Shown: positions 4,642 to 52,346 of the stretch, piece by piece
Layout of the letters: each line of letters opens with the position of its first letter
Position numbering within the stretch: position 1 is the stretch's first letter
Virus record (IMG/VR): IMGVR_UViG_3300036790_000551
Location: 28,832 to 92,831 of that record
From: a virus
DNA length: 64,000 nt
Direction: 5' to 3' (one strand)
Position numbers and translations under genes: made by a program
The notes under the pieces: model-generated
What the model was told of the DNA's origin: nothing
Databases searched by the model: none
What the model saw: only the letters and a program-made list of their open reading frames with translations

Positions 4642-5637
4642 ATGCTTCTCATCGGTTCCAAGGCGCTGAGGCTTCGAGGCATCGACACCGGACGGCCGCC
4701 TCTCGACGTCGACGTCATCGCGACCTTCGACGAACTTGGCAAACTCACGCGATGGATGTCGGCCCGCAGTCGGACGGTTTCGATTCCCCTCTCCGTCAAC
4801 AAGACGGTCCTTAAGTCTGTTGATGGAACGATAGTTGAGGTCGAGATTGCCTGGCCGGACACCGCGGCCCACTCCCTCCTCACCGAGGGGAGCGTCTGGG
4901 CCCCTGACGTCAAGGACGACTGGTTGATGTCCGCGAACGGGTTCCCGCATCCGTTCGACGTTCAGGTCGCCACCCTGGACCAACTCTATGCACTGAAGAT
5001 GTCCCATCGGTACCTGAAGAACAGTCCGCACTTCCTGAAGACGATGCGTGACATCCAACTGATGCGGAGCATGGGTGCCAAGGTCGTCAGCGCAGACTGG
5101 CTGAAGCGGCGTGAACTCGAGACCTACACCTACAAGCATCCGAAGTTGAACGTGATGAAGAAGGACTTCTTCACGGGCGACGGCGTCCAGTACGTCTTCG
5201 AACACGACGACATCCACGTCGCGATGGCTCACTTCAGCGGTAAGTGTGGTGACCCTGTTCCTGCCTACACCCTCTACGCTAAGGACGGTGAGCAGGTTAA
5301 GAGCGACAAAGTCAAGTTCCTCTCTCTCTCAGAGGATGTTCGCCTCTACGGCGTCCTCGAGGAGGCCCAGGTCCTGGCCTTGGAGCGCAGCCAGATACCC
5401 TTCCGTGGTAAGGTGGAGGCACGTCGGTCGTTCGACATCGCGCTGATGAAGGTCTGTACCAGCATCACGAGCGGTTGGTTCCGGGAGTATGCCTGGGAGA
5501 ATTTCGACCGCGTGAACCTGCTCTACGAGAACGACTACGTAGAGCGTTTCTGGAGGGCCGTCGACGACGGACACGTGAGGAAGATTGCTGAAGCCGACCG
5601 ACAGGACCCTGTTAGTAACCCACAAAAATTGCCTTGA
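4642..5637 (+). CDS. Nucleotidyltransferase-fold protein (Pol-beta-like N-terminus, helical C-terminal domain)
   Basis: LLIGSKAL ... DVDVI (GS plus DxD); further motifs LKMSHRY, HDDIH, EEAQVLALER, CTSITSGWFR. Confidence 0.6.
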   Translation: MLLIGSKALRLRGIDTGRPPLDVDVIATFDELGKLTRWMSARSRTVSIPLSVNKTVLKSVDGTIVEVEIAWPDTAAHSLLTEGSVWAPDVKDDWLMSANGFPHPFDVQVATLDQLYALKMSHRYLKNSPHFLKTMRDIQLMRSMGAKVVSADWLKRRELETYTYKHPKLNVMKKDFFTGDGVQYVFEHDDIHVAMAHFSGKCGDPVPAYTLYAKDGEQVKSDKVKFLSLSEDVRLYGVLEEAQVLALERSQIPFRGKVEARRSFDIALMKVCTSITSGWFREYAWENFDRVNLLYENDYVERFWRAVDDGHVRKIAEADRQDPVSNPQKLP

Positions 5638-6511
5638 CGGCACCGGTTCCGCGTTCGTCTTCGTGAAGGCCGGCGGCCTGCAGGCCAACGTTCGCTTTCG
5701 GTTGCCGAACAACTGCGTCCTCAAGCCCAATGACGTCATGGGCCTCGACGAGGTGTGGTTCGTTGACGTCTGCCCATCGGACCTGACCGACCCGGCCGGC
5801 GGACTTCCGTTTCGGGTCATCGACCATCACGTGACGAACGTCCGTCGATTCGATGGTGACCCCCGCTGCACGTTCTCCCTGGACCACAGCGGAACGTCGC
5901 TGTTGGCCCGAGAGGTCGGGCTCGTGGGCTTTGACCGCCTAGTTCGGGCCCTGGAGGCGTACGACCTCGGGCGGTTCCATGACGCCGACGGCATGCTGCT
6001 AGCCGACCTCGCCTCGACATACGCCCAGGACGAGATGCTGAATCGACTCGTCGGAAGGCTTTCGAAGTCTGAGAACCTTTACGACAGCCATCCGATTCTC
6101 GATAGCGAGTACTTCGTGGCCCGCGCCGAGGGGGTCGCGGGAATGCGTGATGATTGGGCCCGGCGCTGCGCCCGGTCTGCCTACGTCTTCATCCTCGATG
6201 ACAACTATGCCCTCGACGACCGCCGGTTCGTGGCAGCCCTCGCGGTCTGTCCGCCTAACTGGACAAACGCCGTCTCCCAGGCCATCATGGACCGGGACGA
6301 CTTCAGGTACTGCGGAGCGGACGTGTCAGTGCAGGTCGCCGTCTGCGTCGACCCAAACGGTGGACAGGTGAGCCTGCGGACCCGGGACGACGCCGTCGAC
6401 TGTAGTAGGATAGCCGAGGGCTTCGGCGGCGGCGGGCACCGTAAGGCAGCAGGTTTTCGGACCGTCGGCGGCACCGGCCTCCGCGGTCTCATTGAGGAGA
6501 TATTCGAATGA
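5585..6511 (+). CDS. DHH/DHHA1 phosphoesterase (NrnB-like)
   Basis: THKNCLDG, IDHH, SLRT, GGGGHRKAAGF. Confidence 0.9.
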   Translation: MLKPTDRTLLVTHKNCLDGTGSAFVFVKAGGLQANVRFRLPNNCVLKPNDVMGLDEVWFVDVCPSDLTDPAGGLPFRVIDHHVTNVRRFDGDPRCTFSLDHSGTSLLAREVGLVGFDRLVRALEAYDLGRFHDADGMLLADLASTYAQDEMLNRLVGRLSKSENLYDSHPILDSEYFVARAEGVAGMRDDWARRCARSAYVFILDDNYALDDRRFVAALAVCPPNWTNAVSQAIMDRDDFRYCGADVSVQVAVCVDPNGGQVSLRTRDDAVDCSRIAEGFGGGGHRKAAGFRTVGGTGLRGLIEEIFE

Positions 6512-7542
6512 GCCTCAGGGTTTACGGCGACAGTCTGAACTTCATCCATCGGGCGTTGATGCGAGAGTTAGCGGAGGACCCGGAGTGCGAGAGCGCTCCC
6601 CGAGGCAAACCAATCAAGGAACTCATCGCGTCGTCGTTCACGTTGACGGACCCTCGAAACCGGCTCATTACGAGTCCGGCCCGGAAGATGAACTACGGGT
6701 TCAGCGTCGGGGAGTTCTGTTGGTACCTCCGGGGAGACACGGACCTCGAGACGATGGTCTATTACAACAAGCGGATGGCCCAGTTCTCTGATGACGGAAA
6801 GACCATCAACTCCGCCTACGGAGACAGGATGTTCAATCCGACGCCGGGATACGCCTACGGCGTCATCAACGGGAAGTTTGGGCCATACTCCCCGTTCGAG
6901 TTTGTGATGGCGGAACTCAAGAGGGACCCCGACAGTCGTCGGGCCGTGATGCACATTAACCGGTCCCATGACCTCATCAACGCTGTCTCCAACGGGTCCA
7001 AGGACGTCCCCTGTACTATGTCCCTGCAACTCCTCGTCAGGAACCGGAAGTTGCATATGCACGTGCTGATGAGGAGCAGCGACATCAATTGGGGGCTTCC
7101 TCACGATGTCTTTAGTTTCACGTGCCTCCAAGAGGTCTTTCTCTATGAGTTACAGGCCGCCGGGGTGCCGGTCGATGACCTGGGGGAGTACCACCACACG
7201 GCAGGCTCCCTCCACCTCTATGAGCCATTTTACGGCCTGGCCAAGGAGATAGCGGCCGAGCCCCTTGAGACCCCTGCTCCGATGAGCCCGTTCACTCTGG
7301 CACAGGTCCAGGGACTGGCTGAGGTGATTGAGCCGGCCATTCGGAACGGAGACCGAGGCAACCTCCTCAACGTTGGAACCTCAGAGGGAACGGAGACGCT
7401 CTCGTGGATGACCGACCGCCTACTCGACCATCGCGTGAAGCGAGAAGCCGAGGAGGTTGAGCGCAACCGAAAGGACGCCGCTTTGAACGAACTTAGTCGA
7501 TTGTCTGAAGAGATTCTTGCCGAGAAGGAGACCGAGAAGTGA
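6508..7542 (+). CDS. Thymidylate synthase-family enzyme, dCMP-specific type (dCMP hydroxymethylase-like)
   Basis: NSAYG, DVPCT, MRSSDINWGLPHD (Asp where ThyA has Asn), GSLHLY. Confidence 0.8.
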   Translation: MSLRVYGDSLNFIHRALMRELAEDPECESAPRGKPIKELIASSFTLTDPRNRLITSPARKMNYGFSVGEFCWYLRGDTDLETMVYYNKRMAQFSDDGKTINSAYGDRMFNPTPGYAYGVINGKFGPYSPFEFVMAELKRDPDSRRAVMHINRSHDLINAVSNGSKDVPCTMSLQLLVRNRKLHMHVLMRSSDINWGLPHDVFSFTCLQEVFLYELQAAGVPVDDLGEYHHTAGSLHLYEPFYGLAKEIAAEPLETPAPMSPFTLAQVQGLAEVIEPAIRNGDRGNLLNVGTSEGTETLSWMTDRLLDHRVKREAEEVERNRKDAALNELSRLSEEILAEKETEK

Positions 7543-7952
7543 GCAGTCGCCCCGACATCGAACTTGCCCTGGACGTCCGCAGCCATGAGCGCGTCGTCGT
7601 GCTGGCTTCCTCGGACTCCGAGTATGAGTATCCGGAGCATTGGATTCGTCCGTCCCGAGCCGCGGAACTTGAGCAGATAGACGAGGCCACTGTGGTCATC
7701 GTCGACCGCGCCGAGTTGCAGCGCCGCACCCTGACGACGGTCGCTGAGCGCCGTCCGCGGCTCCTGGCCGTCTCTCCGAACGGAGTGGAGGGGGAGAAGG
7801 CCGCTCGCCGGATGTTGACATCGCTCTTTCCGTGGTCCGAGGTCTGGACGATACAGACGGCGTTCGGTCGACTCCTGGTCACGAAGGACGCGGTCGGGCC
7901 GGTGTACGACCGAGAGCAACTCGTTGACATGAGAACGTCCGGAGCGGCCTGA
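7539..7952 (+). CDS. Hypothetical protein
   Basis: GTGA overlap with upstream gene; lies between the dCMP enzyme and the dCTPase-like gene. Confidence 0.65.
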   Translation: MSSRPDIELALDVRSHERVVVLASSDSEYEYPEHWIRPSRAAELEQIDEATVVIVDRAELQRRTLTTVAERRPRLLAVSPNGVEGEKAARRMLTSLFPWSEVWTIQTAFGRLLVTKDAVGPVYDREQLVDMRTSGAA

Positions 7953-7953
7953 G

Positions 7954-8319
7954 ATGGCAGACAAATTGGACAAGGTCTTTGTGAAGCAGCGCGAGTTCGT
8001 CGACATGCTCGTCGAGCACGACAAGTTTCCGGAGTATCCGGTCGACTTGACGACAAAAATCGGGCAACGGTTTGCCAAGGAGGTCATCTTCAATCTTTCT
8101 GAAGAACTCTTTGAGGCTTCGTTTACCCTGAAGAACCGTCAGCACAAGTTGAGCAACGACAACGAGTTGGACTTCGAACACTATCGTGAAGAACTCGGTG
8201 ATGCGTTCGCGTACTTCATTGAACTCTGTCTCATCAGCGGCATCTCGGCCGACGACATCTACGAGGAGTACACCCGAAAGAACGCTATCGTGAAGCAGCG
8301 ATTGGCGGACGGGTACTGA
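7954..8319 (+). CDS. All-alpha NTP pyrophosphatase (MazG/dimeric dUTPase, T4 gp56 dCTPase-like)
   Basis: EELFEA ... EELGDAF ... YTRKNAIVKQRLADGY. Confidence 0.8.
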   Translation: MADKLDKVFVKQREFVDMLVEHDKFPEYPVDLTTKIGQRFAKEVIFNLSEELFEASFTLKNRQHKLSNDNELDFEHYREELGDAFAYFIELCLISGISADDIYEEYTRKNAIVKQRLADGY

Positions 8320-8537
8320 TGTTGTATCCGTGGCCGTGCTTCATCTGTCTCTCAGTCGACTGCTGTCCCCGTAACCATCAGAACGAGTTGCTTAACGATG
8401 AGCAAACGCTTCGCTTAGCAAAGGAGATGTTCGATGACAAAGGCCTCAGGGCCGGCCGCGGCCGCATGCTGGCACGCTGCGTCATTGTTCGATTGACCGG
8501 TGTTGACCCCGGTCCTGCCTTTCCTAATGATTATTGA
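8319..8537 (+). CDS. Small Cys-containing hypothetical protein
   Basis: TGATG coupling; CFIC..VDCC. Confidence 0.5.
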   Translation: MLYPWPCFICLSVDCCPRNHQNELLNDEQTLRLAKEMFDDKGLRAGRGRMLARCVIVRLTGVDPGPAFPNDY

Positions 8538-8540
8538 GGA

Positions 8541-8933
8541 TTGAATTCATTGAAGTTCCTTCGCAAGGATAAGGACGGCGGCCCAAAATCGACCGTCACG
8601 GGATACTGGCTGACTGAGTTAAAAAGGCTCTTCAGCGTCGTGTTGTTGAAGTTCGAGAACGGAAGCCGCGAAGAATACCACTCCCATGCCTTCACGAGCC
8701 TAAACTGGGTCCTCAGTGGCCGAGTTGTTGAGCAACACGTCCAGGGAATCGAGCAGGTCCATGGGCCGAGCGTCTGGCCGGTCATTACGCACCGTCACAC
8801 GTACCATCGGGTGGTGAGTGAGGGGACGACCTGGGTCTTCTCTCTCCGCGGACCATGGGCCAAGACCTGGCTTGAGTTCGACCCGAAGACGAAGCGGGAG
8901 ACCACTCTGACGCACGGCCGAAAGGAAGTCTGA
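8541..8933 (+). CDS. Cupin-fold protein
   Basis: YHSHAF...WVLSG..VE and TYHRV motifs. Confidence 0.65.
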   Translation: MNSLKFLRKDKDGGPKSTVTGYWLTELKRLFSVVLLKFENGSREEYHSHAFTSLNWVLSGRVVEQHVQGIEQVHGPSVWPVITHRHTYHRVVSEGTTWVFSLRGPWAKTWLEFDPKTKRETTLTHGRKEV

Positions 8934-9121
8934 TGCTACGCTGTAGTCGGTACGTTTATCATGACTGCCCGAACCCCCCGACGCTAGTCGGACTTCCGTG
9001 GCCGACTCCGCTGTGTGAGGAGTGCGCCGTGGGTTGGTGTGACGGACCGAATCCGTTAGGACAGAAGGAAGTTCGTCCGATGACTGAGGATGAGTTGCGA
9101 AGGGTTAGAGAGAATGGGTGA
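8933..9121 (+). CDS. Small Cys-rich hypothetical protein
   Basis: TGATG coupling; LCEECA. Confidence 0.5.
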   Translation: MLRCSRYVYHDCPNPPTLVGLPWPTPLCEECAVGWCDGPNPLGQKEVRPMTEDELRRVRENG

Positions 9122-9698
9122 CTGCGCTGACGATACGATGAACTGGGAGGACGAGCCTGGAGACCACTACGTCGGCGACGGCGGTTTGAGTGACCAACGG
9201 CTAGATGAGTATATTCGCGGGCCTGACCGGTTTCGGCGGACATCGACGTATGACCCGAACTCGGAGCGGGCTAGGTTCGGTCGCGGTTCCGAGGTCTTCC
9301 TCGTTGGTCAGTTGAACAAACTCTGTCCCCAGGGAATGCGTCGCGTTCAACTGCTCACCGACAAACAGTTCCTCACGGCACGGGAAGCCATCGAGAACTC
9401 GCGCAACGGCGATGCCGTCGTTCAGGAAATGATTCCCGGGATGGGTTGGCGGCGCCGGCGAACGTTAGAACTGAAGTCATCCGACGGCTGGCCGAACGTC
9501 ACGATTTCAGACAGCGAGTTGGCAGAGAGTGAGGCCGAGTTCATCGTGGCCCTCACCGTCGTTAAGAACGACCTGGCCATCTGGGCCTGCACAATGGAAA
9601 GCGCACGTGAACACTCCTTCATGCCAGGCAATGCCCGCTTCTGGGTCGTGCCTCGAGACCGAGTGCCGACCGTACCCTTGCGAGAGGTGCTGCAGTGA
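9114..9698 (+). CDS. Hypothetical protein
   Basis: Long ORF in packed operon. Confidence 0.6.
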   Translation: MGDCADDTMNWEDEPGDHYVGDGGLSDQRLDEYIRGPDRFRRTSTYDPNSERARFGRGSEVFLVGQLNKLCPQGMRRVQLLTDKQFLTAREAIENSRNGDAVVQEMIPGMGWRRRRTLELKSSDGWPNVTISDSELAESEAEFIVALTVVKNDLAIWACTMESAREHSFMPGNARFWVVPRDRVPTVPLREVLQ

Positions 9699-9798
9699 GG
9701 GTCGCCTTCACCGGCCACCGGCCGGACAGGATTAACCATCGCGTCAACGAGGTCTATTCGGCCATCCACGGATGATTAAGTGGGAGAACGATGAGTGA
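9695..9798 (+). pseudogene. Remnant of a YspA/SLOG-family gene
   Basis: 9695-9775 encodes MRVAFTGHRPDRI..., the typical YspA N-terminus, then stops after 26 aa; out-of-frame tail MIKWENDE stops at 9798. Confidence 0.6.
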
Positions 9799-12700
9799 TT
9801 ACTCAGATGACTGACCGACGCATCTCCAACCTGCACGGTCATTCATGCTTCAGTTTCCAAGACGGAATCTGCACTCCCGAGGAAATAATCGAGGCCGCTA
9901 AGGCCAAGGGCCTCCGCTCTGTGGCGCTCACGGACCACGGTCACGCACACGGCCACGGCAGGTTCTACTTGGCCGGCAAGAAGGCCGGAGTCCGCACCCT
10001 TCTCGGAATGGAGGCCTATTGCATCAATGACTTCGCCGAGTGGCATGAGTTCAAGGACAAGGTGGCTGAGGAGAAGCGGGCCCAGAAGGCCGCCGGCAAG
10101 GGCGTCGTCCCGTCAATCGACCCGAACGAGGAGCCTGAGGGGCCTGTCGATAAGGCCGCGCTTCTCAAGGCCATGTCCAAGGTCCTCTATCGCAAGGGCC
10201 ACCTCGTCCTCCTTGCCCAGAACCGAACCGGCCTCGCGAACATCTACCGCCTCCAGTTCAAGGCCCACAAGCACGGGTACTACCAGAAGCCGCGCATCGA
10301 CAAGCGGATGTTGGCCGAGCACGCCGAGGGCATCGTGGCCTCGTCGGCCTGCATGGGCGGAATTCTAAGCCAGAAAATCTGGGGATTGGAGCGCGGCGAA
10401 CTCGAGTGGAGCGACGTGGTTCGTGAGGCCCAGGAGTACGCTGAGATATTTCCCGGTCGCTTCTTCCTCGAACTACAGAGCAACGAGGCGGCGGGCCAAC
10501 GCTACATCAACGAGCACCTCATCCGGCTCTCCCAGGAGACGGGACTGCCGTTAAACGTCACGATGGACGCCCACTACGTGGACCCGGAGGACTGGCGCTC
10601 ACAGCAGATGCTCCACATGCTGATGACCCACCGGGGCGGAAAGGCCCTGACTTTGAACAACCTGCCAGAGGGTTATTCGTTCGACGTGCGGTCGCTGTTC
10701 ATCAAGAGCGGCGACGAGTTGTGGGAGAGTTTCCGCCGCCTGAACCCTGAAGTCGACGAGACCACGCTGGCGCGGGCCTTCGACAACACCCTTTACGCAG
10801 ACAGTCTCATCAGTGACTTCGAGCCGGACACCTCGATGCGCCTTCCGTCCCTGCCGTATGAGGACACGCTCGCCGAACTTAGGAGGTCTGCCGCGGCCGG
10901 GCTCGTGGCCAAGGGCCTGGTGACCAACGACCAGTACATCGAGCGCCTCAAGTACGAACTCGGCGTCATCAAGGAGAAGGGAATCGCGAATTACTTCCTA
11001 GTGGTCCGTAACATCTGTGACAGCGCCCGGAAGGAAATGCGCATCGGACCTGGGAGAGGCTCGAGTGCAGGGTCTTTGATTTGCTACCTGACCGGCATCA
11101 CGAACATTGACCCGATAGAACACAAGTTGATGTTCGAGCGGTTCATCAACCTGGACCGAGTTGAGTTGCCGGACATCGACCTCGACTTCGAGGACGTGGA
11201 CCGCATCAAGGACATTCTCCGTCGCGACTTCGGTGAGGACAACGTTGCGTGTCTCAGCGCCTTCGGAACGTCCCAGATTAAGGGCCTGATGAAGGACGTC
11301 TGCCGCGTGCACGGCATCGACCACCAGGAGTGCAACCGCACAAACGCCCTCATCGAGCGGGAGATGAAGGCCCTTTACTCCGAGGGGGAGGGCGTCACTC
11401 GGTCGGCAATCACGATTAAACTCGACGACGTCTATCGTCTCAGTCCGTCGTTCAACGCCTTCATCGAGAAGTATCCCCAGATAGAGCGGGCCATCAAGTC
11501 CCTGTACGGCCGCGAGCACCACGTCAGCCGGCACGCCTCAGGCGTCGTCATCGGCGACGACCTGCCGGCCGAGACCTCTGTCTTCACGTCAAAGGGCGTG
11601 GTCCAGGCCTCGTTCACGGACGGAATCGTCGGAAAGACGGCGAGCAGCATGGGCCTGGTGAAGTTCGACATCCTGTCGCTCGCCACGCTCAAGGTCATCG
11701 CCAAGGCCCTCGAACTAATTGCCGAACGGACAGGGCGGACCGTGTCCGACGTCGACCGTGAAATCGACCCGAAAGTCATGGACTTTAACAATCTAGACGT
11801 CCTGAAGAAGGTCTTCTGGGAGGGCAACACAACCGGCATCTTCTCCGTGACTTCCGCTGGCATGGTTAAACTCTTCCAGCGAGTAAAACCGACCTCATTC
11901 GATGACGTTGCCGCCGTTACGGCCCTCTTCCGCCCGGGCCCACTCGGCTCGAAGATGGACGTGATGTTCGCCAATCGCAAGAACGGCCTCGAGGAGGTCA
12001 CGTACGACCATCCGATACTCGAGAGCATCATGAAGGACACCTACGGATGTCTCGTCTATCAAGAGCAGATGCTGGAAATCGGCCGTCTGATGGGAAAGAT
12101 GTCATGGAAGGACACCAACCGGCTCCGCAAGTTATTCCTCAAGAAGGACAAGAGCAAGGCGGACGGCTACATCGACGAGGAGGAGCGGTACCTCAAGTCC
12201 ACCCTCATCAAGGGCGTCGTCGAGAATGGGCTCACCGAAGAGCACGGGGAGAAACTCTGGGAGATGTGCGGGAAGTTCGGGGGCTACGGGTTTAACCGTT
12301 CACATTCATATGCCTACGCCATGGTCACGATGCAGACCGCGTACCTGCGCTACCACTACCCGCTCGAGTTCTTCGCGGCGTTGCTTACGGTCGGTCAGGC
12401 CGTCGACCTTCAGACGTACGTGAACGAGATTCGGGCCCAGGGCTTCGAGGTGCTGCCGGTCGACGTCAACAGGTCCAAGGCCGCGCACGTCATGGAAGGC
12501 AACGCCATCAGGCTCGCCCTCTCCTCTGTGAAGGGCATCGGGCCATCCGCCGTGCAGAAGATTGTGGACCACCAGCCCTACGCGGACTGGGAGGCCTTCC
12601 TTCTCGACAGCACCTGCTCGAAGACCATCGTGAACGCACTCATCGGTTGCGGGGCCTTCACGGAACTCTGTCCGGGCCTCTCCGTACGCACCCTGGACGC

Positions 12701-13253
12701 CCGCCACACCCACTTTCGTGGGGACAAGAAACTCTCCCACAAGAAGAACCGAGACACCGTCCGACCCACGCTGGAGGCCATCTGGGCCGATGCGGATGAC
12801 CCCATCGAACTGATGGAGCGGGAGCGTGAACTGCTCGGCTTCAACCTTCGCGGGACTCCCTTCGGCATCAACGGCCGTTACGACAAGGTCGACCGGCTCG
12901 TTGAGCAAGGCATCTGCTCCCGCGGTTGGGCTGAGTTCGTCGAGGACCAGTCAGAGCCTGTGCTTGTGGCCCCGCTCCTGGTGAAGTCCATCAAGGAGCG
13001 GGCGCAGAAGAACGGAAAACTCATGGCTTTCCTTCGACTAGAGGACCGTGACGGCAACGATTACGAGGCACCGGCGTTCGGTAACGTCTGGGGGCACGTC
13101 CGGGAGCACGTCCGGCAGGGGGACGTCTACGTGTGCATCCTCCACCGCAAGGAGGAGGAACCGGACCGGTTCATCGTGGGGCGGCCGGGTTGGGCCCAGA
13201 CCGCGAAGTCGGCCCAGCAGAGTTTCATTCCGATTGACAGGCTCACCGTTTAG
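9795..13253 (+). CDS. dnaE: DNA polymerase III alpha subunit (family C)
   Basis: PHP HGHSCFSFQDG/TDHG, GPGRGSSAGSL, PDIDLDF, KFDIL, YGFNRSHS, C-terminal OB fold. Confidence 0.97.
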   Translation: MITQMTDRRISNLHGHSCFSFQDGICTPEEIIEAAKAKGLRSVALTDHGHAHGHGRFYLAGKKAGVRTLLGMEAYCINDFAEWHEFKDKVAEEKRAQKAAGKGVVPSIDPNEEPEGPVDKAALLKAMSKVLYRKGHLVLLAQNRTGLANIYRLQFKAHKHGYYQKPRIDKRMLAEHAEGIVASSACMGGILSQKIWGLERGELEWSDVVREAQEYAEIFPGRFFLELQSNEAAGQRYINEHLIRLSQETGLPLNVTMDAHYVDPEDWRSQQMLHMLMTHRGGKALTLNNLPEGYSFDVRSLFIKSGDELWESFRRLNPEVDETTLARAFDNTLYADSLISDFEPDTSMRLPSLPYEDTLAELRRSAAAGLVAKGLVTNDQYIERLKYELGVIKEKGIANYFLVVRNICDSARKEMRIGPGRGSSAGSLICYLTGITNIDPIEHKLMFERFINLDRVELPDIDLDFEDVDRIKDILRRDFGEDNVACLSAFGTSQIKGLMKDVCRVHGIDHQECNRTNALIEREMKALYSEGEGVTRSAITIKLDDVYRLSPSFNAFIEKYPQIERAIKSLYGREHHVSRHASGVVIGDDLPAETSVFTSKGVVQASFTDGIVGKTASSMGLVKFDILSLATLKVIAKALELIAERTGRTVSDVDREIDPKVMDFNNLDVLKKVFWEGNTTGIFSVTSAGMVKLFQRVKPTSFDDVAAVTALFRPGPLGSKMDVMFANRKNGLEEVTYDHPILESIMKDTYGCLVYQEQMLEIGRLMGKMSWKDTNRLRKLFLKKDKSKADGYIDEEERYLKSTLIKGVVENGLTEEHGEKLWEMCGKFGGYGFNRSHSYAYAMVTMQTAYLRYHYPLEFFAALLTVGQAVDLQTYVNEIRAQGFEVLPVDVNRSKAAHVMEGNAIRLALSSVKGIGPSAVQKIVDHQPYADWEAFLLDSTCSKTIVNALIGCGAFTELCPGLSVRTLDARHTHFRGDKKLSHKKNRDTVRPTLEAIWADADDPIELMERERELLGFNLRGTPFGINGRYDKVDRLVEQGICSRGWAEFVEDQSEPVLVAPLLVKSIKERAQKNGKLMAFLRLEDRDGNDYEAPAFGNVWGHVREHVRQGDVYVCILHRKEEEPDRFIVGRPGWAQTAKSAQQSFIPIDRLTV

Positions 13254-13270
13254 TGATATGATTGAATGGG

Positions 13271-13546
13271 ATGCATGAGTACGCGGAGCCCGATAGGTGG
13301 GGACGGACGTTCCGCACCTGCACAGCGTGCTTCTATCGGGCCCGTCGCGACGACCGGTACACGATAATTGACAACGCGTGTCCCGCCTGCAACGGGGGCA
13401 CGTTGGTCCTTGAGAGCGACCTCCCTGCCTGCTTCTGGGGCGTGATGTGGCTCTGCTTCATTGTTCGAATCGTGATGACCGGCTGGCACGCTGAGTTGAT
13501 GCAGGACGATGCGAGGCTCCGGTTCTCGCTGATGGAATTGGATTGA
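13271..13546 (+). CDS. Zinc-ribbon-like hypothetical protein
   Basis: CTAC and CPAC; TGATATGAT upstream. Confidence 0.55.
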   Translation: MHEYAEPDRWGRTFRTCTACFYRARRDDRYTIIDNACPACNGGTLVLESDLPACFWGVMWLCFIVRIVMTGWHAELMQDDARLRFSLMELD

Positions 13547-13550
13547 AAGG

Positions 13551-13565
13551 TGATAGGATACCGGC
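13551..13565 (+). promoter_or_regulatory. Putative leaderless extended -10 promoter
   Basis: TGATAGGAT, 6 nt, then ATG 13566. Confidence 0.55.
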
Positions 13566-14552
13566 ATGGCTGACACCGCACTCGTCGTACCCAGCATTCG
13601 GGAGGACAGCCTCAAGAGGTTCATCCGTGAGTGGGAACCGACCGGTTTATTCGACCGCGTCGACCTCATAATCATGGAGGACAATTCGCAGAAGTCATTC
13701 GAGACGCCTGCGGCCGCCAAACTCCATCTCTGCTGGGAGGACATCGATAACCACGACTGGGGTTGGATAATCCCGCGACGGTCAGACACCGTGCGGTCGT
13801 ACGCCTACTGGCGGGCCTGGAGCGACGGCTACGACTACCTGATGTCGTTTGACGATGACGTCTACCCCGAGCCCGGGTACGAACCGGTCGATGAAATACA
13901 CAAGTCGATGCTCACCCGAACCAAGTGGTTCAACACGTTGAACAGCGTGCGACCCCGTGGCACACCGTACTACAACCTCGGTCAGCGCCAGGTCCACGTC
14001 AACCACGGGCTCTGGACCGGTGTGCTCGACTACGACGCCCCGCAGCAACTGGTGAACCCGATACCCGAGACGTTCACCCATGACAACCGCATCGTTCCGC
14101 ACGGAGCGTTCTTCTCCTTCTGTGGAATGAACGTGATTTTCCGTCGCGAGGCGATGGTGCTCAGTTACCACCTCATGATGGGCCAGATGATGACCGACAG
14201 CGGTCAACTCGAACGGCTCTTTGCGGATAGAATGGGGGACATTTGGTGCGGCATCATCATGAAGAAGGTCTGCGACCACCTCCGCTGGGCCGTCAGCAGC
14301 GGCACCCCGTACATCCACCACGACCGAGCATCGAACCCGTTCACCAATCTTAGGAAGGAGGCTCCAGGAATTGAGGTGAACGAGTGGTTCTGGCAACGCA
14401 TCGATGAAATCAGGCTCACCGCTAAGACTGCAGTCGGATGCTACAAACAGATAGCGAACGGCGTCCGGGGCTTCGGCGGTGAACACGCCGCATACTGGGA
14501 CCGGCTCGCCGAGGCGATGGACGTCTGGGCCTCGCTGTTCATTGGCGGCTGA
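13566..14552 (+). CDS. Reversibly glycosylated polypeptide / UDP-arabinopyranose mutase family (GT75)
   Basis: FDDD, WFNTL, HGLW..VLDYDAPQQL, CGMN, KVCDHL..V.SGTPYIHH.RASNPFTNLRKE closely follow plant RGP motifs. Confidence 0.9.
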   Translation: MADTALVVPSIREDSLKRFIREWEPTGLFDRVDLIIMEDNSQKSFETPAAAKLHLCWEDIDNHDWGWIIPRRSDTVRSYAYWRAWSDGYDYLMSFDDDVYPEPGYEPVDEIHKSMLTRTKWFNTLNSVRPRGTPYYNLGQRQVHVNHGLWTGVLDYDAPQQLVNPIPETFTHDNRIVPHGAFFSFCGMNVIFRREAMVLSYHLMMGQMMTDSGQLERLFADRMGDIWCGIIMKKVCDHLRWAVSSGTPYIHHDRASNPFTNLRKEAPGIEVNEWFWQRIDEIRLTAKTAVGCYKQIANGVRGFGGEHAAYWDRLAEAMDVWASLFIGG

Positions 14553-15004
14553 TGTCATACTCGGGAACCTATAAGGGAGTTCGCTTCCGGTCGCTGCTGG
14601 AACTGTCAGTCATCAAAAACCTCGAATCCGCCGGGTTTGTGTTGGGTGCCACGATGCTCTACGAGACGACTAGGATTCCCTATGGAAAGACTAGGGTGAG
14701 GACCTACATCGTCGACCTAACGCTCCCTCAGATGAAAACGTTAGTCGAGGTGAAGCCCAGTTCCCGAGCCGACAATCGAAACAACCGAGCCAAGCGGTCC
14801 GCCGCGGAGGCCTGGTGTCTCGCGAACGGCTGGACGTACGTCATCGTCACCGAGGAGGAGTTGCACGAGTGCGGCCACGGCATCACCCTCGAGGAGGCAG
14901 CGACGATGCCTGACGTGGAGTTGAACGAGCGGGCCAAGCGAGCGAACCGGCGAAAGGCCGCTGCACGGGCCCGACGGCGTGTTAAGATGAAGGGAAAGAA
15001 ATGA
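14552..15004 (+). CDS. TnsA-N-like PD-(D/E)XK nuclease (T4 gp4-like)
   Basis: FRSLLEL, YE..RIPY, YIVDL, LVEVKP. Confidence 0.75.
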   Translation: MSYSGTYKGVRFRSLLELSVIKNLESAGFVLGATMLYETTRIPYGKTRVRTYIVDLTLPQMKTLVEVKPSSRADNRNNRAKRSAAEAWCLANGWTYVIVTEEELHECGHGITLEEAATMPDVELNERAKRANRRKAAARARRRVKMKGKK

Positions 15005-15168
15005 GCGTAAGGCCAAAACAAGACCCGTTTCGGAGGGTCAGCGGTGACCCGCGGGTCCAACACCAACTCCTCGCTCGTCGTGTGACTGAACTCGAGGGGA
15101 CCGTCATAATCCTCGACGCACGGGTGAAACTGCTTGAGGAACTCGTCGCTCATCTCCAAGGTACTTGA
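15001..15168 (+). CDS. 55-aa coiled-coil protein (below ORF-track cutoff)
   Basis: ATGA overlap; LARRVTELEGTVIILDARVKLLEEL. Confidence 0.55.
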   Translation: MSVRPKQDPFRRVSGDPRVQHQLLARRVTELEGTVIILDARVKLLEELVAHLQGT

Positions 15169-15704
15169 GATTGACTGACGTTCGTTCAATCATCGTCGAG
15201 GGCCCCGATAGGGTCGGCAAGACCACAATCGTCAAGCATCTGTCCCAGTGGATGTACCTGCCTGCCTTCAAGGCACCCTCCGAGAAGATAATCTTCAAAG
15301 AGGGAGGCCGACAGTCCCTGGTGTTCGATTACACCCTCACCCACTTCCTGGCGCAGACCGGTCATAGGTTCATCAGCGACCGTAGTTATCCAAGTGAGTG
15401 CGTGTACTCGAAGGTCTTCGAACGGGACACCGATTGGGACCTCTTGAACCGCATCGATGAGGCCCACTCCAGCATCGGAACGACGATTCTCTACCTCTAC
15501 TCGTCGACCGAGCCCACGGAGAAGGACGACCTCGTACCCGACGGGATGTACTGGACGGTCAAGGAGCGGTACGATTGGTTCCGCGACTGGACCGACTGCC
15601 GGGTAGTCTCCTACGATACCGCGGACATGCTGAAGGCATTCGGTGAGGGCTACGACGACAGTCCCCTACACGTCCATCGAATTATGAGGGAAATTTTGAA
15701 ATGA
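15165..15704 (+). CDS. dNMP (thymidylate kinase-like) kinase
   Basis: IIVEGPDRVGKTT, ISDRSYPSECVYS. Confidence 0.85.
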   Translation: MRLTDVRSIIVEGPDRVGKTTIVKHLSQWMYLPAFKAPSEKIIFKEGGRQSLVFDYTLTHFLAQTGHRFISDRSYPSECVYSKVFERDTDWDLLNRIDEAHSSIGTTILYLYSSTEPTEKDDLVPDGMYWTVKERYDWFRDWTDCRVVSYDTADMLKAFGEGYDDSPLHVHRIMREILK

Positions 15705-16105
15705 CAGACAGGAAACCGCTACCGACCCTTGTTCAAATCGCCAAGGGCGAGGCTGAGTTCGAGTTCTATTCCGATGGAAAGATGCAGTATAGGCTGTGGT
15801 GGAGTGAACACGACGACTTCGAGCGTGACCCGGTGTGGCATGAGTTTCACGTCCCCATTCCCGTCGCTGATACCGGCGGGGGATTCTTCAATCCCACGAT
15901 GAAGGGCCTCGAGTTGATGCGTTGGGCTCGTAAGGAACTCGCTCGCCTTCAAGAGGAGGCCGAAATGGTCGCTAAGGCCCGTGAGGAGTGGTTGACTGAG
16001 CAGGACGCGATGATGACGATTATCGAAGCCGACGTTGCCGCCCTCTCCATCACCGAGCGTGGAATTGAACTTGATGGCTTCATCAAAAACAAAAAGACGA
16101 AGTAG
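15701..16105 (+). CDS. Hypothetical protein
   Basis: ATGA-coupled ORF. Confidence 0.6.
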   Translation: MTDRKPLPTLVQIAKGEAEFEFYSDGKMQYRLWWSEHDDFERDPVWHEFHVPIPVADTGGGFFNPTMKGLELMRWARKELARLQEEAEMVAKAREEWLTEQDAMMTIIEADVAALSITERGIELDGFIKNKKTK

Positions 16106-16391
16106 CAAGCGTCGAGGCAATTGCTACGTGACCGCCGAGGCGCTCTACCACCTGTTGGGCGGCAAGGCGGGCGGCTACACGCCGCACACCGTCCGGCACG
16201 AGGGCGCGGTCCACTGGTACCTTGTGCAGAACCTCGATGGGTTCGTCCCGGGCGCGAGGCAGGTCATCGACCCAACGGCAGCGCAGTTCAAGACACCGCC
16301 GCCGTACCATGAAGGCCGCGGTCGCGGCTTCCTGACGAAGGTCCCGAGCAGGCGGACCCGAGAGATGATGAAGAGGATGCTCTACGGATGA
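16074..16391 (+). CDS. Small papain/transglutaminase-like fold protein
   Basis: GNCY ... HWYL ... VIDPTAAQF (C-H-D triad). Confidence 0.5.
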   Translation: MASSKTKRRSSKRRGNCYVTAEALYHLLGGKAGGYTPHTVRHEGAVHWYLVQNLDGFVPGARQVIDPTAAQFKTPPPYHEGRGRGFLTKVPSRRTREMMKRMLYG

Positions 16392-17572
16392 GGATAGGCT
16401 ATCTCTTCCGCGGTTACCTTGGTGACGTCAAGTGGGACGCGGCCGGCAACGAGGTCTCCACTCCTGACGGCAATGCCACATACTCGTGGTCAATCGAGCA
16501 TGAGTGTGAACGGAGGAAGCATAAACTGATTCCACTCGGAGAGAACCTCGACGCGCCGGCAGCCGCATCCCTCGGGCCCGACCTCTTCAAGGCCTTCAGC
16601 GGCTCCAAGCGGGCCAAGTCATACGAGCGGATGCTCCGTCGCGGCTGGTCCCGGCTCTCTGAACGAACGTTTCCTGCGCTCGACCTGGTCCTCGTGGAGT
16701 GGCGCTGGCCCATTCCCGGTCGAAACACCCCAGCGGACCGAGAGAGCGTCGACTACCGGCGTGACCTCGAGCGACAATGGGAGGTCCTCAGACACTACTC
16801 CAATGCCGGCACCCCCATAGTGGTCTGGGACCTCGACCACAAACTGACCGAGTTGGACGTGGAGATGATGCAGGCGGCCGACATGCCGGTCCGCTTCATT
16901 GAGACCGCAGTCAAGCCTAAGGCTTGGGCCCGACGAGTTGAGCCTCCGACGCTCGTCGCGGACCTCTGCCAGCACGACATCAACCCCCGCCTGCCCTCTC
17001 ACCACCTGGGCTACGTCGGCTCCCGTTACGAGCGGGACGAGACGATAGACAAGTGGATTCACCCCATCGCGAACGTGAACGGGCATCGGGCCAAGTTCTG
17101 GGGAAAATGGGAGCCCTCTGATGAGGTCCGGACCCGCTGGCCGGGAATCACCTTTGCGGGCAGGATTGGAGTCAGGGACTTCTATGATGCTTATTCAAGA
17201 GTTGCAGCGGTTCCGTTGCTGGCAAAGCAGTCGTACTACAGGTCCGGCTTCATTACCCCTCGAGTTTGGGAGGCGGTCCTGTTCGGCTCCATTCCCATTG
17301 GGCTCGCCGGCCACCGCGGCATCGGTCAATACGTGGAGCGGGTGGCCATTGACTCACGGGGCCTCCTTGAGGCGGCCACGGAGATTCGCAACATCTCATC
17401 AATCCGCCGTCGCGTTCTGCGGGAGGAGGCGGCGCATAGGTTATCCCATATGGACGCTCGGCATTTCGTCGACGTTCTCGAGGGGTTGGTAGATGCGGTG
17501 GCCAAGGATTTTGAGTCGACCGCTGAAGTTCCTGAGACGCAAGAAGGCACAGAACATGGCAACCAAGAGTAA
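16388..17572 (+). CDS. GT-B DNA glycosyltransferase, T4 beta-glucosyltransferase-like
   Basis: GYVGSRYER and GFITPRVWEA resemble T4 BGT IYGGSFRS and NFITLRVWET; context with dCMP enzyme and kinase. Confidence 0.75.
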   Translation: MRIGYLFRGYLGDVKWDAAGNEVSTPDGNATYSWSIEHECERRKHKLIPLGENLDAPAAASLGPDLFKAFSGSKRAKSYERMLRRGWSRLSERTFPALDLVLVEWRWPIPGRNTPADRESVDYRRDLERQWEVLRHYSNAGTPIVVWDLDHKLTELDVEMMQAADMPVRFIETAVKPKAWARRVEPPTLVADLCQHDINPRLPSHHLGYVGSRYERDETIDKWIHPIANVNGHRAKFWGKWEPSDEVRTRWPGITFAGRIGVRDFYDAYSRVAAVPLLAKQSYYRSGFITPRVWEAVLFGSIPIGLAGHRGIGQYVERVAIDSRGLLEAATEIRNISSIRRRVLREEAAHRLSHMDARHFVDVLEGLVDAVAKDFESTAEVPETQEGTEHGNQE

Positions 17573-20593: not shown

Positions 20594-21472
20594 ATGCTGA
20601 TTTCCGCACGCGTCATCGCTGACTCAATCAACCCGGACGGCGACCGCCTGACGACGGTCGAGGCGGTCTTCAATAGGTGGATACTGGCCGAACTCAACAC
20701 CCATCGCATGCTGAGTCGGAACTCCGCCAGTTCCCGAGCCATCCCAGTCGCGCGCGTGCTGAAGCAGGTCTGGCGGGAGCCGGCCTACCCCGTGCACTGG
20801 GGCAAGAACCAGGCGGGAATGCAGAGTAAGAGTGAACTCGGAGGACTGCGTCTCTGGTTGGCGAAGCGCCTCTTCTTCTGGGCCCGCGTCCCCGCGCTGG
20901 TCCTCGTTTGGCTCCTCAGCAAGGTCGGCCTCCACAAGCAGGTAGCCAACCGCATTCTGGAGCCCTGGGTCTGGCACACGGCAATCATCAGCAGCACGAC
21001 CTGGCACAACTTCTTCAAGTTGCGAGCGCATCCGGATGCCCAGCCCGAGTTCAAGGAGTTGGCTTATAAGATGAACCAAGCCATTAACTGCAGCGAACCT
21101 CGAAGGTTGGAATGGGGTGAGTGGCACCTGCCGTACGCTGACGGGTTGGACGTCAAGACGGCTTCCGGCGCCGCCGTCCTGCCTTCAATGGTGAAGGTCT
21201 CGGCCGCGTGCTGCGCTAGGGTCTCCTACGTTCGACAGAATGACCGGAAGTCTATCGAAGAGGACGTGACGCTTTCCGACAGGCTCGGCGCGAACGGACA
21301 CTTCTCTCCCCTCGAGCATCCGGCCCGGGCGGAGCGCGGCCAATGGGGGAACTTCCGGGGCTGGAAGCAGGCGCGAAAGTTTTACGCCAATGAATCAGGC
21401 GAACCGAAACAGAAGTGCCTCTGTGAGAACGACCTCTACACGTCAGGCTGCCCGACCCACGGGCACAGTTGA
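20594..21472 (+). CDS. thyX: Flavin-dependent thymidylate synthase
   Basis: ELNTHRMLSRNSASSRAIP, HKQVANR.LEP, AQPE, ARVSY, HFSPLEH. Confidence 0.9.
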   Translation: MLISARVIADSINPDGDRLTTVEAVFNRWILAELNTHRMLSRNSASSRAIPVARVLKQVWREPAYPVHWGKNQAGMQSKSELGGLRLWLAKRLFFWARVPALVLVWLLSKVGLHKQVANRILEPWVWHTAIISSTTWHNFFKLRAHPDAQPEFKELAYKMNQAINCSEPRRLEWGEWHLPYADGLDVKTASGAAVLPSMVKVSAACCARVSYVRQNDRKSIEEDVTLSDRLGANGHFSPLEHPARAERGQWGNFRGWKQARKFYANESGEPKQKCLCENDLYTSGCPTHGHS

Positions 21473-21804: not shown

Positions 21805-21805
21805 C

Positions 21806-22849: not shown

Positions 22850-23265
22850 TGTTGACATGTCCCGTGTGCGGCGAGTACTCATGTAAATACTGGCAATGGT
22901 GCAAGATGAATACAGGACCGAAACAATCGACGCCAGTTCCCTCGGGACAGATGAAGACCGACGGAGATACCACTCATCGAGTTCCCCGTTTCGAGCCGGA
23001 GGCCTTGCCTGAGATATACGGTGAGTCACTCGAGGAGCGTGACAACGACCCAGTGAACCACCCATCGCATTACACTGCCAGTGGCATTGAAACGATTGAT
23101 GTCATCGAGGCATGGGACCTAGACTTCTGTTTGGGGAACGCCGTGAAGTACATCTCTCGTGCCGGCAAGAAGGACCCCGAGAAGGAACTGGAAGACCTCA
23201 AGAAGGCTCGGTGGTACGTTGACCGTCGCATCGAGCAAATTCAAAATCGAGGAAAAACCGGATGA
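22849..23265 (+). CDS. DUF3310-type protein (T7 gp1.7-like nucleotide kinase domain)
   Basis: DPVNHPSHY..GIETID ... GNAVKYISRAGKK..EDLKKARWY. Confidence 0.85.
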   Translation: MLTCPVCGEYSCKYWQWCKMNTGPKQSTPVPSGQMKTDGDTTHRVPRFEPEALPEIYGESLEERDNDPVNHPSHYTASGIETIDVIEAWDLDFCLGNAVKYISRAGKKDPEKELEDLKKARWYVDRRIEQIQNRGKTG

Positions 23266-24350: not shown

Positions 24351-24351
24351 G

Positions 24352-25107: not shown

Positions 25108-25151
25108 ACGTTTGCGACGGACGTCCGTCGCCGTTGTGGTACAATGGACGC

Positions 25152-52224: not shown

Positions 52225-52346
52225 CGTGGCCAATATTACCACGACGGTTGTCGGCATGAAGGCCGAATGTATTGGTCTAACTATGGATGACTGTAGTATG
52301 GTGTTGGCATGAAGCATTCAATCGCGTTCACTACGGACGTAAAGGA

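Follow-up and report, generated by a model that had tools for sequence, protein, structure and literature searches.

An uncultured large soil phage encodes T4-style genes that are predicted to replace cytosine in its DNA with 5-hydroxymethylcytosine (5hmC), together with a predicted sugar-ring mutase and a T4-like transferase that probably cap this base with an unusual five-membered-ring sugar, as inferred from sequence and structural models alone. The window analysed is a 64,000-nucleotide stretch (positions 28,832 to 92,831) of the 92.8-kb soil metagenome contig IMGVR_UViG_3300036790_000551, which is estimated to be about 45% complete. The initial annotation had described a thymidylate synthase (TS)-family gene with Asp at the specificity position, a gp56-like pyrophosphatase, a nucleotide kinase and a glycosyltransferase (GT) with a BGT-like motif, clustered around dnaE, with an RGP (GT75) gene in their midst and a separate ThyX. 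All of these genes were found, on the + strand and where described, and the observation is thus confirmed. The accompanying interpretation, that cytosine is replaced by hydroxymethylcytosine (or a related C5-oxygenated base) and glycosylated with a furanose in a DnaE-replicating phage, was only partly supported, as described below.

Gene content of the module

The genes of the module and those considered together with it were as follows.

5585..6511 (+), DHH/DHHA1 phosphoesterase (Pfam DHHA1, E 4.2e-5, just below the cut-off), whose end overlaps the TS start; tblastn matches were located upstream of TS in five relatives (L005, L006, L020, L021 and L025), and a role in supplying dNMPs is inferred.
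6508..7542 (+), TS-family protein (Pfam PF00303, E 1.3e-17), predicted dCMP 5-hydroxymethylase.
7954..8319 (+), all-alpha MazG/dUTPase_2-type NTP pyrophosphatase (Pfam dUTPase_2, E 7.3e-6; PHROG nucleotide pyrophosphohydrolase family phrog_12184, E 1.7e-14), with a weak C-terminal BLASTP match to T4 gp56 (E 4e-4); it is conserved next to TS in relatives, and a dCTPase role like that of gp56 is inferred.
9795..13253 (+), DnaE-type replicative polymerase alpha subunit, with four Pfam domains (PHP, DNA_pol3_alpha, finger and HHH_6).
13566..14552 (+), predicted GT75/RGP NDP-pyranose/furanose mutase (Pfam RGP, E 4.8e-37, positions 7-336 of 342).
14552..15004 (+), TnsA-like/endonuclease I-like small nuclease (Pfam Tn7_TnsA-like_N, E 1.4e-8) inserted between RGP and the kinase; homologues were detected only in relatives L007 and L021, and it is probably a mobile insertion and not a pathway member.
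15165..15704 (+), P-loop (deoxy)nucleotide kinase (phrog_761, E 8.5e-11), for which phosphorylation of hm-dCMP is inferred.
16388..17572 (+), orphan 394-aa predicted GT-B glycosyltransferase, distantly BGT-like and predicted to glycosylate 5hmC in DNA.
20594..21472 (+), ThyX flavin-dependent thymidylate synthase (Pfam Thy1, E 2.6e-9), the separate dTMP source, conserved in relatives L007, L021 and L024.
23262..23894 (+), NT5C-type 5'-deoxynucleotidase (Pfam NT5C, E 3.8e-9), with an inferred role in nucleotide pool editing.
35287..36135 (+), RfbF-like glucose-1-phosphate cytidylyltransferase (TIGR02623, E 4.9e-55, 187 bits, below the 300-bit cut-off).
36799..37788 (+), NDP-hexose 4,6-dehydratase-like SDR with an SSDKAYG motif (Pfam Epimerase, E 2.9e-52).
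52287..52937 (+), CmcI/rhamnosyl-O-methyltransferase-like methyltransferase (Pfam Methyltransf_24, E 3e-11; RMNT_CmcI, E 2.2e-6).

The AF2 model of the kinase (pLDDT 85.6) has the dNK/TMPK fold, and its best Foldseek matches were YorR, deoxynucleoside kinases and thymidylate kinases. Both the kinase and the pyrophosphatase are assigned by fold or superfamily only, and their substrates are therefore given here as inferences.

The thymidylate synthase homologue

The TS homologue carries every sequence determinant of a dCMP hydroxymethylase, and not those of an enzyme producing dTMP, hm-dUMP or 5-hydroxy-dCMP or of a CMP enzyme. In alignment with E. coli ThyA (whose numbering is used here), the Asp of its WGLPHD string falls at N177, which gives cytosine specificity, whereas the SPO1 gp29 dUMP hydroxymethylase has Asn in the same alignment. 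Asp at the L143 position marks a non-methyl product, and Cys146 is present. Asp169 is retained, in contrast to the Asn of 5-hydroxy-dCMP synthases (PMC13326640). Ser167 and Arg126, the deoxyribose markers, are likewise retained (PMC5175136). The pattern of L143D/E, C146, S167, D169 and N177D holds in all 11 further TS homologues located next to GTs of this family. The “related C5-oxygenated base” allowed by the initial annotation is thus disfavoured, since the Asp that becomes Asn in the 5-hydroxy-dCMP synthases is kept.

The possibility remains that this enzyme makes a different nucleotide (5-methyl-dCMP, 5-hydroxy-dCMP or hm-dUMP), in which case the final base would not be a 5hmC derivative. 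The closest phage hits by tblastn are annotated or proven dUMP hydroxymethylases such as SPO1 gp29, product prediction from a few residues can fail, and 5-hydroxy-dCMP synthases were only recently recognised inside this family (PMC13326640). Nevertheless, the residues at N177 and L143 argue against a uracil-type enzyme and a methyl product, respectively, and all tested 5-hydroxy-dCMP synthases have Asn at position 169 (PMC13326640). We therefore consider this alternative unlikely.

The closest solved sequence relative of the TS homologue is the cytosine-specific MilA CMP 5-hydroxymethylase of mildiomycin biosynthesis (E 8.5e-34), which shares Asp at both the cytosine-specificity and the L143 positions. 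Moreover, the only characterised bacterial GT75 enzymes, MtdL and Hyg20, serve nucleoside or aminoglycoside antibiotics (PMC9937993), and the genes could in principle yield a small-molecule nucleoside, as in these actinomycete pathways, and not modified DNA. However, MilA has Ala176 and Lys133, which favour ribonucleotides, whereas the phage enzyme has the Ser and Arg of deoxyribonucleotide enzymes (PMC5175136). In addition, the genes are embedded among replication and dNTP-pool genes in phages, and no MilB-like N-glycosidase was detected among the genes scanned. This reading appears very unlikely.

The predicted glycosyltransferase

No Pfam, PHROG, NCBIfam or PDB sequence hit was obtained for the orphan protein. 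Its AF2 model is confident (pLDDT 93.4) and shows a GT-B fold. In structural comparison, T4 BGT (1qkj) gave a VIA Z of 21.6 with the lowest rmsd (3.4 over 299 of 351 residues), tied with PimA at 21.8, and BGT also gave the best Foldseek TM scores among the listed matches (0.59/0.66). The protein contains the sequence GFITPRVWE, which aligns with NFITLRVWE of T4 BGT, and the GGSFR...R and ITLRVWE stretches of BGT align with the invariant GSRYER and ITPRxWE of the phage family. The relation to BGT is remote, however: the hhalign probability was 10%, no HMM hit to any PDB sequence was found, and GT4 enzymes scored equally by fold. The proposed DNA acceptor therefore rests on gene linkage.

The GT75/RGP protein

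The RGP protein matched two GT75 structures in the PDB, UDP-arabinopyranose mutase (8cid, E 6.6e-18) and MtdL (7xpr, E 6.8e-15). All of the catalytic and metal-binding residues of the solved mutase MtdL are kept: D109-D111, R159, R257, D260 and H287 of MtdL correspond to D96-D98, R131, R222, D225 and H252 of the phage protein, and all of these are invariant in 32 phage homologues. They comprise the DDD motif, the catalytic Arg, the Mn-binding His and the sugar-binding Arg/Asp (PMC9937993). In contrast, the residues that set UDP versus GDP preference in GT75 are a hybrid of the plant and MtdL types (Pro at T13, Ser at S86). No FAD-type UDP-galactopyranose mutase was found in the four genomes searched for it (G000, G003, G007 and G011), while the control genomes gave hits.

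GT75 proteins have a GT-A fold with a DxD motif and self-glycosylate a conserved Arg (PMC9937993), and this Arg and the DDD motif are invariant here. A transferase role is thus not excluded, whereby the RGP would add a first or second sugar to the base through its arginine-linked glycosyl intermediate, so that two transferases build a disaccharide. T-even phages do build disaccharides on 5hmC. On the other hand, no GT75 member is known to glycosylate a substrate other than itself, every characterised active member is a mutase (PMC9937993), and the residues kept here are those shown by mutagenesis to be needed for mutase activity. This alternative is considered unlikely.

Conservation and linkage of the module

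The clustering is not due to chance. The order DnaE-RGP-kinase-GT recurs in at least 10 distinct IMG/VR contigs at 35-70% identity, the kinase always being found between RGP and GT in these relatives, and TS and MazG lie upstream of DnaE wherever the retrieved flank reaches that far. At least 20 contigs in the list of RGP homologues were matched by contigs of identical size in the list of GT homologues. A TS homologue was present in 12 of 13 virus records carrying the GT, and in 5 of 5 that are at least 90% complete. Moreover, an unrelated phage with a family A polymerase, DnaB, primase and RecA carries dCMP deaminase-TS-kinase-RGP-UDG-GT. The set of genes therefore travels as a module and is not tied to DnaE.

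In three records that are at least 91% complete, the GT family occurs with TS but without any RGP, and the GT therefore does not need a furanose donor in general. The DNA could accordingly carry 5hmC glycosylated with an ordinary pyranose from a host UDP-sugar, as in T4, while the GT75 enzyme supplies a furanose for a different target, such as a virion protein, a second sugar added by another transferase, or a host surface glycan. Relatives G003 and G007 carry a further GT4-type transferase next to a GalE-like SDR elsewhere in the genome, and a 595-kb uncultured phage has an RGP homologue with no TS homologue and, within 12 kb, no GT of this family. Nonetheless, the position of RGP between DnaE and the kinase-GT pair in at least 10 distinct contigs, and between the kinase and the GT region in the family A polymerase phage, is hard to explain without a shared pathway. 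This alternative is less likely than the pathway proposed below, although it is the strongest of those considered.

Genes for a possible sugar donor

The RfbF-like cytidylyltransferase and the dehydratase-like SDR give one candidate route to the donor, but these CDP-glucose pathway genes are not consistently linked to the mutase. Among the relatives searched, a homologue of the cytidylyltransferase was detected only in G003, and its link to the module is unproven. The SDR matched the dTDP- and CDP-glucose 4,6-dehydratase models at about 145 bits, both below cut-off, and PDB entry 1rkx (E 8.8e-27), and the same motif appears in the G007 homologue. The methyltransferase at 52287..52937 suggests possible sugar O-methylation, although this is speculative; in relative L020, a homologue sits between RGP and the kinase.

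Comparison with known systems

The logic and parts list are the same as those of the glucosyl-5hmC pathway of phage T4 (gp56 dCTPase, gp42 dCMP hydroxymethylase, gp1 dNMP kinase, alpha- and beta-glucosyltransferases), in that both comprise an NTP pyrophosphatase, a TS-family enzyme with Asp at the N177 and L143 positions, a nucleotide kinase and a GT-B transferase with shared nucleotide-binding motifs and fold. Every component is, however, only remotely related to its T4 counterpart; the TS homologue shares 20% identity with gp42, and the GT has no HMM-level link to BGT. Furthermore, T4 takes UDP-glucose directly from the host and has no sugar-nucleotide mutase, and the replicase here is DnaE, not a family B polymerase.

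Furanosyl-cytosine DNA, as proposed in the initial annotation, is not new as such. Phages RB69 and DLP3 carry arabinofuranosyl-5-hydroxycytosine, and Rhizobium phage RL38JI, which has a galactosyl/glucosyl-5-hydroxycytosine system, encodes a predicted UDP-galactopyranose mutase (Lee et al. 2026, PMC13326640). These cytosine hypermodifications likewise start from a TS homologue plus a kinase, are finished by DNA glycosyltransferases and use phage-encoded sugar-nucleotide genes; furanose sugars on cytosine are proven in RB69 and DLP3. Their TS homologues, however, carry D169N and make 5-hydroxy-dCMP, giving an ether link directly to C5, whereas the Asp169 retained here predicts a hydroxymethyl link. 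RB69 builds Araf through arabinose-5-phosphate and RL38JI uses an FAD-dependent Glf-type mutase, while here the only mutase candidate is a metal-dependent GT75 enzyme, with no Glf homologue found. What differs from these systems is thus the predicted hydroxymethyl linkage, the predicted GT75 mutase and the new transferase family.

The GT75 mutases known to date, the plant UDP-arabinopyranose mutases/RGPs and bacterial MtdL and Hyg20, share full-length homology with the phage protein but serve plant cell walls or actinomycete antibiotics (PMC9937993), and no paper linking the family to phages or to DNA was found in the literature library searched. Arabinose is only one of several possible sugars, since plant RGPs also convert UDP-Galp and bacterial GT75 enzymes act on GDP-L-Fuc and GDP-L-Gal (PMC9937993).

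Proposed pathway

The genes, their diagnostic residues, the predicted fold of the GT and the linkage across phages are supported by the sequence analysis, whereas the catalytic activities, the donor sugar and the modification itself remain inferences, drawn without chemical, expression or virion data. With this reservation, a cytosine-hypermodification module is the best reading, which we hold to be only slightly more likely than not. From family membership, it is inferred that the MazG-like pyrophosphatase converts dCTP to dCMP and keeps dCTP out of replication, that the TS homologue hydroxymethylates dCMP at C5 with methylene-tetrahydrofolate, and that the P-loop kinase makes hm-dCDP, from which a host kinase makes hm-dCTP. 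The phage polymerase would then incorporate it, such that cytosine is replaced by 5hmC, while ThyX supplies dTMP separately. From fold, motifs and gene linkage, it is inferred that the 394-aa GT-B enzyme transfers a sugar onto the hydroxymethyl group after replication. From conserved catalytic residues and position in the operon, it is inferred that the GT75/RGP enzyme makes the donor by contracting an NDP-pyranose to the NDP-furanose with Mn2+/Mg2+. Candidates for the sugar are galactofuranose or arabinofuranose from host UDP-sugars, or a 6-deoxyhexofuranose from the phage's own CDP-glucose cytidylyltransferase and 4,6-dehydratase genes. The result would be furanosyl-5hmC DNA that resists host nucleases.

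Genomic setting and gene content

The region analyzed comprises bases 28832-92831 of a 92,831-base IMG/VR virus contig, rated 45% complete by CheckV and of about 60% G+C. Two soil metagenome runs contain the sequence, and no RNA run was listed among the sequencing runs. Relatives carrying the same genes reach 185-215 kb, so the contig derives from a large uncultured soil phage. A megablast search of the whole region against 50,697 phage records returned no match. All of the genes named in the initial annotation are present on the + strand, and its observation is thus confirmed. The genes under consideration are as follows.

4642-5637 (+), DUF7275/DUF7277 protein (E 3.6e-62), overlapping the start of the next gene
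5585-6511 (+), DHH/DHHA1 phosphoesterase, running into the thymidylate synthase (TS)-family gene
6508-7542 (+), TS-family protein containing WGLPHD
7954-8319 (+), putative MazG/dUTPase_2-type pyrophosphatase
8541-8933 (+), 130-aa ORF matching phrog_4786, annotated as cysteine dioxygenase (E 2.3e-17)
9795-13253 (+), DnaE
13566-14552 (+), RGP (GT75) protein
14552-15004 (+), 150-aa TnsA-like/endonuclease I-like nuclease
15165-15704 (+), P-loop kinase
16388-17572 (+), predicted GT-B glycosyltransferase (GT) containing GFITPRVWE
20594-21472 (+), ThyX
23262-23894 (+), NT5C nucleotidase

The DHH gene is conserved upstream of the TS gene in five relatives. In contrast, the cysteine dioxygenase-like ORF has no Pfam hit, and no homologue was seen in the related loci. 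The small nuclease between the RGP and kinase genes is present in only two relatives (loci L007 and L021) and absent from the same position in the others, and thus looks like a mobile or homing-type insertion inside the operon.

The thymidylate synthase homologue

The TS homologue matches Pfam PF00303 (E 1.3e-17, 64 bits against a cut-off of 24.3 bits) and gave 108 TS-family matches in the PDB. Its closest solved relative is MilA, a cytosine-specific hydroxymethylase (E 8.5e-34), with T4 gp42 and ordinary ThyA following far behind. By tblastn, however, the nearest phage genes include the proven dUMP hydroxymethylase of SPO1, so that the specificity residues are of importance. The protein was therefore aligned with E. 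coli ThyA, T4 gp42, SPO1 gp29 and others, and published rules were applied (PMC13326640, PMC5175136), whereby an acidic residue at L143 (E. coli numbering) accompanies non-methyl products, Asp at N177 accompanies cytosine, Asn at D169 marks the 5-hydroxy-dCMP synthases (RB69 gp48 type), and Ser167 and Arg126 mark deoxyribose enzymes, in place of the Ala and Lys of MilA.

The catalytic nucleophile Cys146 is conserved, together with Glu58, His207 and Tyr209. The WGLPHD stretch aligns with GLPFN of ThyA and GFRND of gp42 and places Asp at position 177, where SPO1 gp29 has Asn in the same alignment. In KDVPC, Asp occurs three residues before the Cys (Asp143), and the MRSSD and DPDSRR stretches provide Ser167 and Arg126. 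Asp169 is retained, and the signature of the 5-hydroxy-dCMP synthases is thus lacking, both in this protein and in all 11 further TS homologues that sit near a GT of this family, which share the L143D/E, C146, S167, D169, N177D pattern. On the basis of sequence, the predicted product, from dCMP and methylene-THF, is 5-hydroxymethyl-dCMP, rather than dTMP, hm-dUMP, 5-hydroxy-dCMP or hm-CMP. The TS matches in three relatives (loci L045, L046 and L048, in records G015, G008 and G006) were each reported with one in-frame stop (TGA or TAG), although the match may simply run past the end of the gene.

The pyrophosphatase and the kinase

The product of 7954-8319 matches Pfam dUTPase_2 (PF08761, 26.8 bits against a cut-off of 22.9 bits) and phrog_12184, a pyrophosphohydrolase family, and has a short C-terminal match to T4 gp56, consistent with an all-alpha MazG/dUTPase_2 pyrophosphatase. 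No PDB relative was found, and a dCTP/dCDP specificity is inferred. The kinase carries the Walker A motif GPDRVGKT, and its model (pLDDT 85.6) gave YorR, deoxynucleoside kinases and thymidylate kinases as the best fold matches; T4 gp1 was not among the 50 listed Foldseek matches. The fold fits a dNMP kinase, its action on hm-dCMP being inferred.

The predicted glycosyltransferase

The product of 16388-17572 has no family hit at all. In a word-indexed search 352 hits were obtained, and an exhaustive profile search extended the family to 367 clusters at 50% identity, none of which carries a name or a Pfam domain. By tblastn, no match was found in the 50,697 phage records. An AlphaFold model built on 59 homologues is confident (pLDDT 93.4, pTM 0.89) and shows a GT-B, two-Rossmann fold. 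T4 beta-glucosyltransferase (BGT) superposes with Z 21.6 and rmsd 3.4 over 299 of 351 residues, which is tied with PimA (21.8) and just ahead of many GT4 enzymes and T4 AGT, while the best Foldseek TM scores among the listed matches (0.59/0.66) are also to BGT.

The sequence link to BGT is weak but specific. Pairwise BLASTP gave E 3e-4 over 121 residues of the C-terminal domain, and hhalign gave E 0.003 but a probability of only 10%. A profile of 59 members found no PDB sequence, BGT did not appear among the best 150 matches of the exhaustive profile search, and only three of 150 family representatives match BGT, with a best E of 1e-6. The aligned stretches are the nucleotide-binding motifs of BGT (residues S189, R191, R195, R269 and E272): GSRYER and ITPRVWE align with GGSFRSGQRE and ITLRVWE (NFITLRVWE in BGT versus GFITPRVWE here), and they are invariant in the family. 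A tree of the GTs with BGT as outgroup was mostly unresolved, with BGT on a very long branch, and shows only that three RGP-negative phages form one clade. The protein is therefore referred to here as a distant BGT-like GT-B enzyme, and is not classified as a member of GT63.

The RGP protein

The RGP protein matches Pfam PF03214 essentially end to end (E 4.8e-37, residues 5-324 on profile positions 7-336 of 342). It aligns over its full length with a solved UDP-arabinopyranose mutase (8cid) and over its core with MtdL. The MtdL residues whose roles were shown by structure and mutagenesis (PMC9937993) were mapped onto the phage protein.

Correspondence of MtdL residues (first) with those of the phage RGP protein (second)
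D109-D111 (DDD motif): D96-D98
R159 (catalytic and self-glycosylated Arg): R131, in PRG
R257 (sugar binding): R222
D260 (sugar binding): D225
H287 (Mn ligand): H252
R289: R254
D87: D74
R90: R77

Of these, D96-D98, R77, R131, R222, D225 and H252 are invariant in 32 phage homologues at 42-79% identity, and D74 and R254 are nearly invariant. The enzyme is therefore intact and under selection, although pyranose-furanose interconversion is inferred from these residues and the position in the operon. The positions that set the preference for UDP or GDP (MtdL T13, N42 and S86), mapped by eye in the N-terminal region, are mixed: Pro at T13 is plant-like, Ser at S86 is MtdL-like, and the third position is neither. 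The substrates described for GT75 enzymes are UDP-L-Ara and UDP-D-Gal in plants, and GDP-L-Fuc and GDP-L-Gal in bacteria (PMC9937993).

Gene linkage among relatives

The order TS-MazG-DnaE-RGP-kinase-GT is kept in relatives at 35-70% identity, whereas in more distant phages (loci L008, L030, L032 and L033) the GT occurs next to a TS with no RGP. Across 13 whole records holding the GT, 12 have the TS, the exception being a 12%-complete fragment, and seven of the 13 have the RGP. For the many 180-215-kb contigs behind the protein hits, co-occurrence rests on identical lengths only.

The most telling case is locus L034, from a smaller phage with DnaB, primase, RecA and a family A polymerase, in which the gene order is dCMP deaminase-TS-kinase-RGP-UDG-like-GT-polymerase. 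The UDG-superfamily protein (9252-10004; Pfam E 1.3e-15) between the RGP and the GT is an unexplained component of a cytosine-modification module. The TS-kinase-RGP-GT set therefore moves as a unit between unrelated replication backgrounds, which is the best evidence available that the four act together on DNA precursors and DNA. The proposed 5hmC acceptor in duplex DNA is supported by linkage alone, through the TS with the cytosine signature found in 12 of 13 records. No FAD-type UDP-galactopyranose mutase was found in four of these phages, while the control genomes gave hits.

GT75 genes in phages are not all tied to this module. By tblastn of the RGP against the 50,697 phage records, a single match was found, a 41%-identical homologue in a 595-kb uncultured phage of 42% G+C (LR756511.1, 205981-206910). 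This record contains no TS homologue, and no GT of this family occurs within 12 kb of the RGP, so that it says nothing about DNA modification.

Candidate genes for the donor sugar

Additional genes of possible relevance to the donor sugar occur elsewhere in the window.

35287 (start), RfbF-like glucose-1-phosphate cytidylyltransferase
36799 (start), 4,6-dehydratase-like SDR containing SSDKAYG
41865-42476 (+), 203-aa ORF resembling short NAD(P)-binding SDR proteins
52287-52937 (+), Methyltransf_24/CmcI (rhamnosyl O-methyltransferase-like) gene

The first two score below their equivalog cut-offs: TIGR02623 gave 187 bits against a cut-off of 300 bits, and TIGR02622 gave 143 bits against 278, with the dTDP model scoring equally. 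The Asp-Lys pair in SSDKAYG fits the CDP-type enzyme, being the CDP-glucose 4,6-dehydratase variant of the usual Asp-Glu, and the homologue in the 96%-complete relative G007 has the same motif. The 211-aa ORF between these two genes has no family hit.

The idea that the CDP-sugar genes always accompany the RGP was examined and not upheld. Among 13 records, the RfbF-like gene was found only in the near-complete relative G003, and it is missing from G007. Among near-complete records, the dehydratase-like gene occurs in both RGP-positive genomes (G003 and G007) and in none of three RGP-negative ones, but the positives are close kin. The independent RGP-positive G011 has neither gene in the 67% of it that was searched.

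The ORF at 41865 resembles an SDR by language-model features (0.96) and predicted structure (TM about 0.8), but it has no Pfam or PDB sequence hit and the catalytic Tyr could not be found by eye. It is therefore not assigned as the missing 4-ketoreductase. A 29%-identical homologue of the methyltransferase lies between the RGP and the kinase in relative L020 (8408-9193), which hints that the sugar may be O-methylated in some phages. Moreover, G003 (149682-153059) and G007 (21739-25446) carry a GT4-type (MshA/BshA-like) glycosyltransferase next to a GalE-like SDR, far from the main module, which could add a second sugar or serve another target; no copy lies in the 92.8 kb of the present contig.

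Interpretation and relation to known systems

The initial annotation proposed that cytosine is replaced by hmC, or a related C5-oxygenated base, and glycosylated with a furanose, and this interpretation is partly supported. The analysis itself establishes the presence and order of the genes, the family, fold and residue matches, and the linkage among relatives, whereas the product of the TS homologue, the acceptor of the GT, the activity and substrate of the RGP, and the specificities of the pyrophosphatase and the kinase are all inferred, and from an incomplete contig.

A phage-made CDP-6-deoxyhexofuranose donor is possible but unproven and, on present evidence, unlikely; a host UDP-sugar such as UDP-Gal is at least as likely. 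With such a phage-made donor, the DNA would carry a base not yet described, 5-hydroxymethylcytosine capped by a 6-deoxyhexofuranose such as D-fucofuranose, built entirely by phage enzymes: the glucose-1-phosphate cytidylyltransferase, a CDP-glucose 4,6-dehydratase, a 4-ketoreductase and the GT75 mutase acting on a CDP-sugar, possibly followed by O-methylation by the CmcI-like methyltransferase. This would also be the first CDP-sugar substrate for a GT75 enzyme and the first viral GT75 mutase.

The logic of the module is that of T4 glucosyl-5hmC. Furanose sugars on phage cytosine are already proven, as arabinofuranosyl-5-hydroxycytosine in RB69 and DLP3, and a phage Glf-type mutase has been proposed for RL38JI (PMC13326640). 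The present module differs in the predicted hydroxymethyl link, in the GT75 metal-dependent mutase and in a new, unannotated transferase family. Among the literature searched, no paper links the GT75/RGP family to phages.

Sugar-coated cytosine is a classic phage shield against restriction enzymes and CRISPR nucleases, and is also the source of widely used 5hmC-labelling enzymes. The module would add a new donor route, in which a metal-dependent GT75 mutase is used in place of the FAD enzyme or the arabinose-5-phosphate route, a new DNA glycosyltransferase family of several hundred sequence clusters with no database annotation, and probably a new furanosyl-5hmC base. It is common in uncultured soil phages of about 200 kb and also occurs in a smaller family A polymerase phage, and it may therefore represent a widespread anti-defence chemistry.
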